Shown: positions 24,149 through 56,061 of the stretch, piece after piece
Numbering within the stretch: the first letter of the stretch is position 1
Layout: each line of letters opens with the position of its first letter
Sequence record: MT129652.1
Source of the DNA: Escherichia phage MN01
Length of the DNA stretch: 64,000 bases
Reading direction: 5' to 3' (one strand)
Translations under genes and position numbers: made by a program
The notes under the pieces: generated by a model
Seen by the model: only the letters and a program-made list of their open reading frames with translations
The model's database searches: none
Told to the model about the DNA's origin: nothing

Positions 24149-24178
24149 GTATACGCGATGGGATAACTGCAGTATAAT
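24149..24178 (+). promoter_or_regulatory. sigma70-type early promoter (repeated cassette copy)
   Basis: GTATAC -35-like, about 18 nt spacer, TATAAT; followed by conserved leader TATCCCATCAACTACTGGAGG and ATG at 24204. Confidence 0.5.
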
Positions 24179-24203
24179 TATCCCATCAACTACTGGAGGC
24201 AAC

Positions 24204-24458
24204 ATGAAAACATATCAAGAATTTATTAACGAAGCCGCAGATGCAAAAGTTGAGTTTGCTTATGTTGGTTCCCCGCGGGGTAGTTTTTCTAATGAGGAAT
24301 TGCGCCGTTCACTAGACAACTTTATGCAGTTAAGTGCTGAAGTATCGCATGATGGTCGCTATGACATCGTTACCATTAAAGGTTCTGAAGACCTTATCAA
24401 AAAGTGGCACAAGCAGAAAGATGTTGAGATGCGTTACTATCGTATCCCTAAAAAATAA
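24204..24458 (+). CDS. internal-protein-like protein (CTS-bearing)
   Basis: N-terminus MKTYQEFINEA; own promoter cassette. Confidence 0.6.
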   Translation: MKTYQEFINEAADAKVEFAYVGSPRGSFSNEELRRSLDNFMQLSAEVSHDGRYDIVTIKGSEDLIKKWHKQKDVEMRYYRIPKK

Positions 24459-24487
24459 GTGTACTTTTAAATGGGATAGTGTATAAT
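24459..24487 (+). promoter_or_regulatory. sigma70-type early promoter (repeated cassette copy)
   Basis: GTGTAC, 17 nt spacer, TATAAT; same leader as the copy at 24149. Confidence 0.5.
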
Positions 24488-24515
24488 TATCCCGTCAACT
24501 ACTGAGGGTCAAAAA

Positions 24516-24737
24516 ATGAAAACGTATCAAGAATTTATTAACGAAGCTAAAATGCATGACGAATTGCCGATTCAATCTAAAACTTTTGATGGTACACTGA
24601 AGGATTTTAAAAAGTTACCAAATGATAAATTGGCAAAACTTACAGGTTCTGTATCTGAAACAGGTGGTAAGGTTACTTTCTCTGCCCGTGGTATTGTCAA
24701 CCTTAAAAAACTTTTGAAAGCCGTTGGTGCTGAATAA
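24516..24737 (+). CDS. internal-protein-like protein (CTS-bearing)
   Basis: N-terminus MKTYQEFINEA. Confidence 0.6.
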   Translation: MKTYQEFINEAKMHDELPIQSKTFDGTLKDFKKLPNDKLAKLTGSVSETGGKVTFSARGIVNLKKLLKAVGAE

Positions 24738-24795
24738 AACAGTTACTGGTCTAGTATATCATAACCTAGACCTATCAAAAAGTGAGGAGAATAAA

Positions 24796-24981
24796 ATGAA
24801 ACGCTGTGAATTAATTAGAAATGTTACTGCCCTTGTTGCTGTTACCGCTTTTGGTTTTAGCATGTTTGCTGGCTTTATGTTGAATATGCTTTCAACTTCT
24901 GAGAATATAATCTCTTTAGTAGTTGCATTTTTAATTGGTTCAATCTCTTTCGTTATGGATAAAATCTCTAAAGGTGAGTAA
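24796..24981 (+). CDS. small membrane protein
   Basis: start moved to MKRCEL preceded by GAGGAG; hydrophobic segments. Confidence 0.5.
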   Translation: MKRCELIRNVTALVAVTAFGFSMFAGFMLNMLSTSENIISLVVAFLIGSISFVMDKISKGE

Positions 24982-24982
24982 A

Positions 24983-25372
24983 ATGTATAAAGTGTATGCG
25001 GATTATCAGGCAAATCCATCTGAAAAACCAGATTGTCAAATTGGGTGGGCACACGACACCCTGCTTGAGGCGGTAGATAAAGCCCAGGAATTAGGGTATA
25101 GTTATGTGGATATTGTTCAACCAAATGGAACAGTTATTACACTTGAAGAATTCAAGAATATCAAAACAAACTTTTTACTCTTTGCGGGTGATAGCTATTA
25201 CCCTCGTGGCGGTTATGATGACCTTATCGCGAAGGCTGCAACTGAAGATGAACTGCGTGATATAATTAAAGAAAACGAGAATAAACCTTGTTATGGTTCT
25301 AATCGCTTTGACTGGTGGCAGATTGTTAATGCCAATACCCATACTATTGTCGATGCAGGGACATGTGAATGA
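24983..25372 (+). CDS. hypothetical protein
   Basis: start moved to MYKVYADY immediately after the upstream stop. Confidence 0.5.
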   Translation: MYKVYADYQANPSEKPDCQIGWAHDTLLEAVDKAQELGYSYVDIVQPNGTVITLEEFKNIKTNFLLFAGDSYYPRGGYDDLIAKAATEDELRDIIKENENKPCYGSNRFDWWQIVNANTHTIVDAGTCE

Positions 25373-25845
25373 ATATCAAATTTGGACAGACCATCCCTAA
25401 AGGTTATGTGATTGAAATTGAAACCTGGGAAAATGATGGTGATAATTATAAAACCCAGACTGTATTTGGTGTAGAAGAACAAGAAATCCAACAGTACAAA
25501 TATATCCTGGAACTTTTCCATGGTTCGCATTGCAACAACCGCAACAAATGTGGTAATTCAGAATGGGATGTGGTTAAACACTTGGTTATCGCCCACATTG
25601 CATCTGGCGTAAAATCTGGCCAGTTGACTTATGAATTTTTGGATAAAGTTCTTGGTATTGCAGATTTGGAAGCCTTGTTGAATGACGATGAAGAAGCATA
25701 CTATTTGAATGAAGCCCTTACTGAGCTCCTTGGTATGGCTTGTGAATATGATGGCGATTTCATGCGTGTAATTTCGTATGTTAAACTATATATAATCGAA
25801 GAAGAAATCCAAATTCCATCTGTTAAAGCGCTTGATATGCTTTAA
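25369..25845 (+). CDS. hypothetical protein
   Basis: 158 aa ORF, ATGA overlap with upstream gene. Confidence 0.5.
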   Translation: MNIKFGQTIPKGYVIEIETWENDGDNYKTQTVFGVEEQEIQQYKYILELFHGSHCNNRNKCGNSEWDVVKHLVIAHIASGVKSGQLTYEFLDKVLGIADLEALLNDDEEAYYLNEALTELLGMACEYDGDFMRVISYVKLYIIEEEIQIPSVKALDML

Positions 25846-54318: not shown

Positions 54319-54491
54319 AAACTGCATTAGTCTATACCGAAAAGTTAAACGGTGACAAGGTCTGGAAACTTCTTATCAAAGGAAGCCCTACTGACCAGTT
54401 TATGGCCACCTGTGTGGGATTGTATACTCGTCCTACCAAAAAGATGATTCGTCAATTTAAACGGTTGCACCGTTCGTTCTACGGGGTCTGA
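54315..54491 (+). CDS. small basic protein (58 aa, below cutoff), hypothetical
   Basis: ATGA overlap with the upstream stop; read by eye. Confidence 0.3.
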   Translation: MKTALVYTEKLNGDKVWKLLIKGSPTDQFMATCVGLYTRPTKKMIRQFKRLHRSFYGV

Positions 54492-54590
54492 TATGGATGC
54501 TCTTATTACGGTATTTTGGGTCGGAGTTGTTTTATTCGGATTGTTGTTAGTGCTAAGTTGCACTGCTAAACTATTAGGATATTAATAAAT

Positions 54591-54615
54591 ACCCTTATCT
54601 AATAATGGTAAGGGT
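54591..54615 (+). promoter_or_regulatory. hairpin sequestering the gene 49 Shine-Dalgarno, with late-promoter-like AATAAATA upstream
   Basis: ACCCTTA-loop-TAAGGGT with AAGGG Shine-Dalgarno in the 3-prime arm 6 nt before the ATG; same GGATA(T)TAATAAATACCC context as gene e. Confidence 0.5.
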
Positions 54616-54620
54616 TTATT

Positions 54621-55094
54621 ATGTTGTTGACTGGCAAATTATACAAAGAAGAAAAACAAAAACTTTATGATGCACAAGCTGGTAAGTGTCCAATTTGCCA
54701 CCGTGATTTGGACTCTGATGTTCAGGCCAACCATCTTGACCATGACCACGAATTGAACGGGCCAAAAGCCGGTAAGGTTCGCGGGTTACTATGCAATCTG
54801 TGCAATGGAACAGAAGGGCAAATGAAGCATAAGTTCAGCCGTTCGGGTCTGAAAGGTCGTGATGTTGACTACCTGGAATGGTTAGAGAGTTTGCTTGTCT
54901 ATCTGAAATCTGATTATACCGAAAACAATATTCACCCTAATTTTGTGACAGACAAAGCTAAAGAGTTCGGTCGCCTGGGGAAAGAAGAAATGATTCAGGA
55001 AATGCTTTTGAACGGCATGACTTATAATGAATCTGATACGAAGCCTAAACTACAAGCTTCATTTAAAAAACAACTGAGGAAATCGCTTAAATGA
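54621..55094 (+). CDS. 49: endonuclease VII, Holliday junction resolvase (T4 gp49)
   Basis: 157 aa; MLLTGKLYKEEKQK..DHDHELNGPKAGKVRGLLCNLCN nearly identical to T4 endonuclease VII. Confidence 0.95.
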   Translation: MLLTGKLYKEEKQKLYDAQAGKCPICHRDLDSDVQANHLDHDHELNGPKAGKVRGLLCNLCNGTEGQMKHKFSRSGLKGRDVDYLEWLESLLVYLKSDYTENNIHPNFVTDKAKEFGRLGKEEMIQEMLLNGMTYNESDTKPKLQASFKKQLRKSLK

Positions 55095-55179
55095 TTAATT
55101 TTTATGGAATTATTGTATATTGTATTGGCGAAGCTATAAACAATTTAATACGATTGATGGGTGAGGAGTATCCTTCTCA

Positions 55180-55431
55180 ATGGCTATTCCTCGTAACCAA
55201 TACAGGACCTTTCTAATGAACAAATTTCGTAATGCTGTTTCTGATATCCTGGCCAATATTACATTTGTCTTGTTTATTGTGTGCCTTTTAATTCTGGTCG
55301 TCCCATTTGGATTGCTGTTTGTGATGATTGGCGCCCTGAGTACTGAAAAGGGCCTTGAAGGGTCTGAGTTCGACAAACGAATCCAGGCTGTCCATAGTGT
55401 TATTGCTAAAATGATGAAGGTGAAAGAATGA
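55180..55431 (+). CDS. small membrane protein
   Basis: 83 aa; one long hydrophobic segment. Confidence 0.45.
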   Translation: MAIPRNQYRTFLMNKFRNAVSDILANITFVLFIVCLLILVVPFGLLFVMIGALSTEKGLEGSEFDKRIQAVHSVIAKMMKVKE

Positions 55432-55727
55432 AACGTTTTGAAGAATATGTAGCTACTAATTGGACTGCATGGGACAAGTTCGGTGATGAATGGTACTTCC
55501 ACGACTGTGACCTGGACCCGAAATTCTTTGCTGATAAAGAAGAAGACCTTAAAGATATCTATGCTCTATCTGAGATTCATGGAATCAAACCGACGGTTTA
55601 TTTCTCTTTCGATGACACAGGTTTCCTTATTCAGATTTATGTCCCGTACGCAACTTCCAGCGATGAAGAAGTTATTAAAACCTGGAACTACCAAGGAGTG
55701 ATTTCCTGTGGGCCAAAACTCGACTAA
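55428..55727 (+). CDS. hypothetical protein
   Basis: 99 aa, ATGA coupling. Confidence 0.45.
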   Translation: MKRFEEYVATNWTAWDKFGDEWYFHDCDLDPKFFADKEEDLKDIYALSEIHGIKPTVYFSFDDTGFLIQIYVPYATSSDEEVIKTWNYQGVISCGPKLD

Positions 55728-56025
55728 GATTGAAATCTATGGTATTCCCGAAGAAGTCGGTCGATGCCCAGGTTGTATGCACGTCAGGAGCCTTCTGGGC
55801 TCCTTAAACCTTCCTTATACATTCTATTCAGTCCTTAACAAACAAGGCTCTGAAATCGCTTATGACAGGCCTTTAATCGTGTCTCTGGCCAAGCGTGCTG
55901 GATATCCTACCCTTAACATTCGTTACCCGGTGATTTTTGTCAATGATGAAAAAATGACCAATATTCCTGCCTTTAAAACAAAACTGATATCCCTGGGGTA
56001 TGACCAGGACTTAATTGAAGATTAA
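55708..56025 (+). CDS. glutaredoxin/thioredoxin-fold protein (NrdH-like)
   Basis: KIEIYGIPEEVGRCPGCMHV: beta-strand then C-P-G-C redox motif. Confidence 0.6.
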   Translation: MGQNSTKIEIYGIPEEVGRCPGCMHVRSLLGSLNLPYTFYSVLNKQGSEIAYDRPLIVSLAKRAGYPTLNIRYPVIFVNDEKMTNIPAFKTKLISLGYDQDLIED

Positions 56026-56061
56026 AAAGGGGTGTACAAGCCCCTTTGAATGATGTATCAT
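56026..56061 (+). promoter_or_regulatory. stem-loop plus early promoter cassette
   Basis: AAAGGGG-tGTGTACaag-CCCCTTT hairpin with the -35-like GTGTAC in its loop, then TATCAT and the conserved leader. Confidence 0.45.

Follow-up and report, generated by a model that had tools for sequence, protein, structure and literature searches.

Promoter-early-stem-loop (PeSL) elements, defined in RB49 and phi1 (Arbiol et al. 2010, PMC2839356) and in PST/T4 and nt-1/KVP40 (Comeau et al. 2014, PMC4122927), are a class already established across the T4-type phages, including the T-even group. Their subclasses place a stem-loop in the gap that separates the -35 and the -10 box or overlapping either box, with G-T pairs marked, and one such stem-loop terminated as well as rrnB T1 in a reporter assay (both Arbiol et al. 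2010, PMC2839356). The early promoters of T4, also called "uber" promoters, have a consensus that extends beyond the elements -35, TGn and -10, and T4 RegB cuts inside the Shine-Dalgarno (SD) sequences of the motA and regB mRNAs (both Hinton 2010, PMC2988021). The present analysis concerns repeated promoter and leader cassettes in the early region of Escherichia phage MN01 (sequence record MT129652.1), examined in a stretch of 64,000 nucleotides that is called the window below. With a probability of roughly 80%, these cassettes are PeSL-type regulatory cassettes, that is, self-contained expression modules that are also recombination sites. The literature searched contained no description of such cassettes in the genus Gaprivervirus, and the novelty is modest, consisting of one leader family, a GTGTAC -35 box and the limited share of gene shuffling that the cassettes explain.

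By megablast, the region is that of an SP18-like T4-type phage (genus Gaprivervirus, Straboviridae), with 95-99% identity to Yersinia phage P8, the TH-series coliphages, VR20/VR25 and SP18. The T4-like early region, placed at 22-58 kb by the annotation of SP18, P8 and UPEC07, contains 57B, internal-protein and tRNA genes, e, denV, vs, regB, tk, mobD and nrdC.x, all on the + strand. For comparison, the syntenic 40 kb of 11 relatives were aligned with the window by BLASTn, and the high-scoring segment pairs (HSPs) were chained with overlaps tolerated. The cassette inventory was made by reading all + strand intergenic regions.

Eighteen compact cassettes were found within about 33 kb of the early region (23.2-56.1 kb), and none in the 20-kb late-gene region. 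The initial annotation had counted about a dozen copies; all 13 sites that it named are real and correctly placed, but the count was too low, with five copies overlooked (-35 boxes at 23218, 37332 before denV, 37794, 47341 and 50863). A T4-type promoter pattern (GT[GTA]TAC, N16-18, YAYNAT) matched 19 times on the + strand and once on the - strand, where 200 dinucleotide shuffles gave 0.71 +/- 0.80 per strand, and every + strand match lies between 23.2 and 58.1 kb. Each cassette, 56-84 nt from -35 to ATG, follows the same order: upstream stop codon, A/T-rich tract, -35, spacer, often TGn, a TATAAT-like -10, discriminator, leader, SD and ATG. The stop codon touches or overlaps the -35 in c01-c03, c10, c13, c16 and c18 (Table 1), and the 20 nt 5' of the -35 are 74% A+T (43% A), compared with 61% A+T regionally. 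The -35 is GTGTAC in 11 cassettes, GTTTAC in 4, GTATAC in 2 and TTTTAC in 1, followed by a spacer of variable sequence and of 17-19 nt when counted from GTnTAC (16-18 nt from the hexamer TnTACn). The discriminator (T/G)nT(C/T)CC and a CAT at the expected start are common to most cassettes of every family, and the leader is short, A-rich, apparently unstructured and ends in a GGAG-type SD; the SD and ATG of the downstream gene form the 3' end in all 18.

These 18 sites are predicted to be strong early promoters for host sigma70. They resemble the T4 early promoters in their A-rich upstream tract, GTTTAC-type -35, 17-nt spacer, frequent TGn and TATAAT, in having a consensus beyond the core elements and in pointing the same way as the early genes; the likeness is one of promoter sequence, and the MN01 -35 differs in being shifted to GTGTAC. 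The latter, a palindrome when read as TGTACA, is the -35 consensus in 11 of 18 cassettes, whereas the syntenic T4-like region has GTTTAC at all 14 sites, and the predicted early-promoter consensus has thus shifted at the level of the genus. PeSL elements likewise have a different box, TTGACA in RB49 and TTTACW in T4/PST, compared with the mostly (G)TGTACA of Gaprivervirus. In other respects the match is close: the upstream stop codon, the A/T-rich tract, the sigma70-like boxes, a stem-loop between or overlapping the boxes with G-T pairs allowed, the SD and the ATG are all shared, as is the position before small accessory open reading frames (ORFs) in variable regions. The likeness to PeSL elements that had been proposed for the cassettes therefore extends to every feature of the class that can be tested on sequence.

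The GC-rich stem-loops noted earlier at 29385, 43804 and 56026 are all real; that at 43802-43829 is a canonical terminator, and in those at 29384-29403 and 56026-56047 the loop contains the -35 hexamer. In 8 of the 18 promoters the -10 is bracketed by an inverted repeat with 6 or more Watson-Crick bp, one arm in the spacer and the other right behind the -10, versus 8% of 909 other TATAAT-like sites (binomial p=4e-5); the stems reach 10 bp, or 14 when G.U pairs are included. RNAfold z scores were below -2 for 13 of 21 elements versus 10% of random regional 60-mers (Mann-Whitney p=1.4e-6). The bracketing repeats were considered as a new feature, which was rejected because they already form PeSL subclasses (PMC2839356). 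Among relatives, pairing survives changes in both arms: in the c05 stem, A-T has become G-C in TH15 and P8 has the G.T intermediate, the c01 stem is shifted in TH44, and the stem upstream of trna.4 is ATGGGATA/TATCCCAT in Gaprivervirus relatives versus ATAGGGTA/TACCCTAT in a T4-like phage. The tolerance of G.U pairs points to stems that act as RNA or as single-stranded DNA. An operator for a dimeric DNA-binding protein was rejected, as the arms differ (GGGATA, GTAGG, GGGAC, GTCTAG, GGGGTCAT) while pairing, G.U included, is kept. Canonical terminators precede c05, c14 and c15, and terminator-like hairpins are over-represented in the early region (23 vs 14.9 +/- 3.3; 28 vs 12.9 +/- 3.7) and not enriched in the late region (13 vs 14.3 +/- 3.7).

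Two leader families recur among the cassettes. Family A comprises six cassettes with a common 40-nt leader, upstream of the ATGs at 28055, 28563, 28933, 29460, 47640 and 48224, as listed in the initial annotation, and all six copies were recovered both by the repeat finder (D2) and by MAFFT. The invariant columns of the MAFFT alignment read ATAAT..T.CCATACTGAGTTAC...CAAA...GGA.AA.TAAAATG. The leader varies in length through small indels, within and between genomes; because the copies differ in this way, a gapless search for the full leader with up to 3 mismatches recovered only two of the six (28522 and 29419). Family B is defined by TATCCCATCAACTACTGAGG, common to four to six cassettes; with up to 2 mismatches this sequence matched four times, at 24179, 24488, 43872 and 56062, where shuffles give 0.00, which bears out the four ORFs to which a second leader had been assigned. 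The longest exact tracts between cassettes are 46 nt (c16/c17), 40 nt (c06/c08) and 32 nt (c07/c08); the 64 kb have no longer exact direct repeats once a tandem coding repeat at 3.4-3.9 kb is set aside, so the similarity is not confined to generic SD and -10 elements.

The copies had also been called unusually similar and numerous, and this stands: in the window 16 pairs of exact repeats reach 20 nt or more (maximum 46 nt), compared with 5 (maximum 33 nt) in the syntenic 42 kb of the T4-like comparator HP3, which has 14 pattern matches on one strand, the same architecture and its own repeated leader, GGTACTATACAACTATCAACTAC. The excess arises because family A expanded. Its leader occurs at 7-11 places per Gaprivervirus genome and, outside the genus, at 1-3 places in a few phages such as Morganella MP1 (where it is an annotated promoter) and Providencia phages. 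More than 600 T4-like records contain the -10 and leader of family B, among them T2, T6 and RB51, where they lie upstream of trna.4. On these distributions, family A is read as a Gaprivervirus-specific expansion of one leader variant and family B as the ancestral T-even leader; an amplified leader of about 40 nt, with longer exact tracts than in the T4-like comparator, is a further difference from the described PeSL elements.

Evidence that the cassettes recombine came from comparing their positions with those in the relatives, where single chimeric cassettes are found at places at which the window has a gene with a cassette on each side. Gene 28563-28859 is missing from six relatives as a 370-nt unit (28565|28886), leaving the promoter half of c06 joined to the SD half of c07; the crossover falls inside the 22-nt identical tract CCATACTGAGTTACCAAATAAA, and the HSPs overlap by 50 nt. 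Gene 47394-47570 is missing from ten relatives, with junctions inside the promoter part of c15/c16 and overlaps of 8-45 nt (47339-47373|47557 and 47335|47570); in P8, TH54 and TH40 the slot is taken by another module, 791 nt long, that has a minus-strand gene. Mini-circles excised during infection, a further feature of the PeSL class, would here have predicted sizes of 370 bp for the first gene and about 230 bp for the second. The internal-protein gene 24516-24737 is missing from 10 of 11 relatives (24521|24771) with the junction at the SD (TGAGG), and 9 of these 10 have a family-B cassette directly before the trna.4 gene, six with the same c03-type promoter half and three with different upstream flanks. 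A 47-nt overlap at 24540|24771 was discarded as mostly alignment spill-over, the real common tract being TGAGG plus AAAATGAAA. The stem-loop-only half cassette at 24748..24772 corresponds in position to a full family-B cassette in 9 of 11 relatives. Furthermore, the same downstream gene has different promoter halves in different phages at c07, c12, c16 and trna.4, and the promoter half of c16 is unlike the one that 10 relatives have at the orthologous locus. As chimeric cassettes lie exactly where single genes are present or absent, cassette-to-cassette recombination has occurred. The described PeSL elements show the same outcome, a single chimeric cassette where the flanked ORF is missing, with crossovers between the -10 and the SD or ATG.

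In the mechanism proposed here, E. coli RNA polymerase would fire the cassette promoters immediately after infection, at the time when T4-type early promoters are active without phage protein synthesis. In read-through RNA the stem-loop would form and either attenuate or terminate transcription or protect the upstream message; RNA begun at the cassette's own promoter would lack the 5' arm of the stem. RegB, encoded at 39985-40443, would then cut the GGAG SD and turn the early messages off. These steps are modelled on T4 biology. The comparison with relatives shows crossovers between cassettes, presumably by the phage's own homologous recombination, since single small genes have the same 20-46-nt tracts on either side as direct repeats; the flanked gene is deleted, inserted or swapped, leaving one chimeric cassette that would still function.

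Several points weigh against so broad a reading. The promoter, terminator and RegB activities are inferred from sequence throughout, and a generic sigma70 scan does not tell these sites from background in such AT-rich DNA (65 matches vs 58 +/- 7.6 expected). Related copies (c02/c03/c06; c16/c17) enter the hairpin-enrichment statistics as if independent, and inverted-repeat and fold scans gave no convincing stem-loop in five cassettes (c09, c12, c13, c15 and c18). The 78 breakpoint clusters divide into 22 at cassette junctions, 44 at gene junctions without a cassette and 12 within genes; the excess at cassettes is not significant (11 of 18 cassette vs 35 of 74 plain junctions, Fisher p=0.43), nor are cassette-adjacent genes significantly more variable (10/26 vs 9/37, p=0.27), with both tests low in power owing to the small sample. 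Among about 16 clean gene deletions, only some 3-4 are cassette-to-cassette, and about 11 are at cassette-free junctions with 1-14 nt of microhomology (among the microhomology deletions without a cassette are 32954|33175, 49662|49740, 52242|52395, 53403|53725, 56829|56954 and 57554|57804). The lack of a significant breakpoint excess, and the fact that the MN01 elements are known from sequence, set them apart from PeSL elements as described.

These counts favour the strongest alternative, in which the cassettes are passive: ordinary early promoters at gene boundaries, used occasionally for crossovers since any repeat serves, with turnover due mainly to microhomology-mediated or illegitimate recombination, to exchange when phages co-infect a cell and to homing endonucleases. 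Other sequences do serve equally well as crossover sites. The holin-like gene 27359-27913 was deleted between two terminators sharing GGGCTTTTTT(T)ATA, and this terminator-to-terminator deletion (27334|27927) was seen in SP18, TH57 and TH54; the 5' ends of internal-protein genes act similarly. The passive view is nevertheless a doubtful one, as three to four events cross inside cassette homology and leave a precise chimera, as one gene can have different promoter halves in different phages, and as the tests that support it have little power. The claim that the cassettes drive gene shuffling thus survives in part: the chimeras show crossovers within cassettes, but these account for few deletions and breakpoints are not significantly enriched there. 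The cassettes are best described as established crossover substrates that are not the main route of gene turnover and are not shown to be privileged in the 11-relative sample.

A separate case was seen at 32245-32725, where the small genes 32266, 32488 and 32716 have repeated 3'-end, SD and start sequences (D17, D19). P8, TH22 and TH40 have a precise deletion of gene 32488-32706, which was apparently lost by recombination between coding-end repeats and not between promoter cassettes.

The SD sequence links the cassettes to RegB. GGAG is present in the SD window of 12 of the 18 cassette genes, compared with 9 of 75 other regional genes (odds ratio 14.7, p=7e-6), and GAGG, GGGA or GGAA takes its place in the other six. 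Within family A, GGAG followed by A-rich sequence is found in five of six copies (GGAGAAT in c06, c08, c16 and c17, GGAGAAA in c05), and c07 has GGGATAAT, without GGAG. The regB gene (39985-40443) is itself behind a GGAG cassette, c13, whose sequence from -35 to ATG is unchanged in 7 relatives out of 11, with a single spacer base different in the remaining 4. We infer that the cassettes would give early expression that is later shut off by RegB. As with known RegB targets, in which A-rich sequence usually follows the GGAG, the GGAG SD belongs to predicted early mRNAs, regB's own included, the MN01 likeness being by sequence only; the six cassettes without GGAG are a difference.

The same conservation could mean that the family-A leader is a cis-regulatory RNA, for example a translational-repressor operator or an S1/RegB enhancer, and is maintained as such, with recombination a side effect. 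Across six genes, 23 nt from ATAAT to TTAC and the block GGA.AA.TAAAATG are invariant, the motif ACTGAGT is palindromic, and five copies have GGAG plus A-rich sequence. However, an Rfam scan of 22.0-58.5 kb returned only two tRNAs at gathering score and no RNA family matching the leaders, and the variation in length by small indels is contrary to a precise RNA structure, which leaves this explanation rather unlikely. A combined form, in which the leader would be a genus-specific cis-regulatory module of the 5' untranslated region and unrelated accessory genes would form a regulon growing via cassette recombination, is more speculative still.

Genes behind the cassettes encode internal proteins or proteins of unknown function and are mostly unrelated. 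BLASTp among the downstream proteins found only the c05/c07 pair (44% over 73 amino acids) and an 11-residue N-terminus of the internal proteins. In PHROGs, the family-A genes belong to four different unknown-function families, with c05 and c07 cross-matching, and the genes with ATGs at 23624, 23905, 24204, 24516, 37027 and 37854 belong to six different internal head/virion protein families. These data bear on the improbable view that the repeats are leftovers of tandem gene duplication, with paralogues keeping their upstream regions. The c05/c07 proteins and the 11 shared first codons of the internal-protein genes would suit it, but the other family A and B proteins have no detectable similarity and fall in different PHROG families, and the identity of cassette DNA (up to 100% over 40-46 nt) is far above that of adjoining coding DNA. 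Least probable of all is functional constraint or convergence on an optimal promoter and ribosome-binding site without copying between loci, since, although T4 early promoters have a consensus beyond the core boxes (PMC2988021) and the discriminator and start-site CAT recur in every family here, the 40-46-nt identical tracts cover leader positions filled quite differently in other working cassettes, family A is almost confined to one genus at 7-11 copies per genome, and chimeras exist.

The six internal-protein genes form two clusters, at 23.6-24.7 kb (23624-24737) and 37.0-38.2 kb (37027-38153), and share an N-terminal capsid-targeting sequence, MKT(Y/F)..EF, which is MKTYQEFI in four genes, MKTYKEFI in 37027 and MKTFNEFF in 23624. 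Replacements of these genes begin just past the common 5' coding sequence (23918, 24233, 24548, 37047 and 37883) and have their right boundary at the next cassette. The internal-protein locus of T-even phages is alike in being an array of unrelated internal-protein genes with a common capsid-targeting N-terminus and upstream promoters, swapped among relatives with edges at the common 5' coding sequence and the next promoter, a pattern that Comeau et al. (PMC4122927) attribute for T4 to Repoila et al. 1994; MN01 differs in having six such genes in two clusters. Nearly any two relatives differ in their set of internal-protein genes, and none of the 11 has gene 37027-37329.

The two genes with the clearest cassette-to-cassette loss have different histories. 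Gene 28563-28859 is confined to Gaprivervirus. Among Gapriverviruses, the 58-amino-acid gene 47394-47570 is found only in SP18, VR26 and MN01, and its homologues are 70% identical in unrelated 45-kb Salmonella/E. coli phages (e.g. Akira) and 52% identical in RB49-like phages, which suggests that it was acquired horizontally into a cassette-flanked slot. Integron gene cassettes offer an analogy, and only that: they too are single-ORF units with a repeated recombination site, inserted and excised as units, possibly as circles. They differ in that MN01 has no integrase or attC-like site, general homologous recombination being presumed, and in that each MN01 unit carries its own promoter.

Table 1. 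Cassettes and associated elements of the MN01 early region, with window coordinates.
Element	Position	Strand	Features
c01	23218..23285	+	-35 GTGTAC, -10 TATTAT, GGAG SD, ATG 23283; stem GTGTAGG/CCTACAC around -10
Internal-protein gene array	23624..24548	+	Common 5' coding sequence forms a second recombination tract
c02, family B	24149..24206	+	10-bp stem GATGGGATAA/TTATCCCATC around -10; before internal-protein gene 24204
c03, family B	24459..24518	+	Before internal-protein gene 24516
Stem-loop-only "half" cassette	24748..24772	+	GGTCTAG..CTAGACC; before trna.4-like gene 24796
Intrinsic terminator	27915..27931	+	Upstream of c05; one end of deletion 27334|27927
c05, family A long-leader variant	27974..28057	+	Spacer hairpin CATCCAG/CTGGATG
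c06, family A reference copy	28493..28565	+	Stem GTGGGATAAT/ATTATCCCAT around -10
c07, family A	28861..28935	+	Recombination partner of c06
c08, family A	29384..29462	+	GC stem-loop GGGGG-TATACAA-GCCCCC, -35 in loop; 40 nt exact with c06
Hairpin-only element D16a	29780..29801	+	GGGAACAT..ATGTTCCC, -10-like loop
c09, degenerate family B	33216..33276	+	Left edge of gene replacements (33204-33217, 33277)
c10	34486..34545	+	Stem GTGGGACTAT/ATGGTCCCAC around weak -10 (CACAAT)
c11	37332..37388	+	Before denV; extended -10; downstream hairpin GTTCTCCTA/TAGGAGAAC containing SD
c12	37794..37856	+	Before internal-protein gene 37854; another cassette or none in relatives
c13	39928..39987	+	Before regB; TATCCCATCAAAC leader, GGAG SD
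c14, family B, with terminator	43802..43902	+	Canonical terminator 43802-43829
c15, with terminator	47308..47396	+	Terminator 47308-47327; before 58-amino-acid gene 47394
c16, family A	47570..47642	+	14-bp G.U-containing stem around -10
c17, family A	48158..48226	+	46 nt exact with c16
c18	50863..50922	+	GTTTAC / TATAAT, GGAG SD
c19, family B	56026..56095	+	GC stem-loop AAAGGGG-TGTACAAG-CCCCTTT (56026-56047), -35 in loop
Hairpin-only element D16b	57162..57185	+	GGGGTCAT-GGTATA-ATGACCCC, TGn-TATAAT extended -10 in loop

Two further sites of variation coincide with elements in Table 1. TH54 has a 447-nt insertion exactly at D16a, and the interior of c10 (34494|34530) holds a 277-nt segment in SP18 versus 35 nt in the window. 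The hairpin-only elements occur as two copies (29777-29819 and 57160-57202) of an 8-bp GC-rich stem with a -10-like loop, followed by GGATAATAAAA. Repeats of a length similar to that of the cassettes occur in the window only at 3455-3888, where a - strand late structural gene has six tandem 72-nt (24-codon) repeats, 66-82% identical to the reference copy.

Three intergenic regions, at 48749-48790, 58339-58386 and 59922-59978, resemble MotA-dependent middle promoters and are unlike the early cassettes, with a GCTTTA or TGCTTT box, about 12 nt, and TATAAT or TAAAAT. One middle-promoter-like site, at 59907-59933, lies 3' of a terminator hairpin and is a possible "PmSL" as described for nt-1. The tRNA genes at 26241-26393 number only two (Met-CAT and Arg-TCT), compared with three (Met, Asn and Arg) at this location in the SP18 annotation. 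Downstream of them, a GC-rich non-coding stretch at 26650-26872 contains two similar hairpins, CGGGCGGTGCGCCCGGTAGTATG and CGGATGGTGCATCCGGTACTATGG, and matched nothing in Rfam; several relatives have shorter sequence in its place (26764|27270: 505 vs 147 nt). The stretch may encode small stable RNAs of the sort found in the tRNA region of T4. Finally, nrdD and nrdG (anaerobic ribonucleotide reductase) are missing from the window at 55091-55216, where 9 of 11 relatives have 2399 nt and the window and TH44 have 124 nt, the latter encoding a 41-amino-acid ORF that resembles a small ORF after nrdG in P8.

For the T4-type phages, the MN01 cassettes extend the PeSL concept to another T-even genus, with chimeric cassettes resolved at the nucleotide level. 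Within the 11-relative set, the crossover substrates are cassettes, terminator T-runs, common coding 5' ends and microhomology, with no statistical privilege for the cassettes. The association of cassettes with GGAG would join mobility, early expression and early shut-off of accessory genes in one module, and the family-A leader, if its regulatory role is true, puts unrelated accessory genes under one post-transcriptional switch. The cassettes also mark sites at which Gaprivervirus genomes tolerate gene insertion, which is useful for the engineering of therapeutic T4-like phages.

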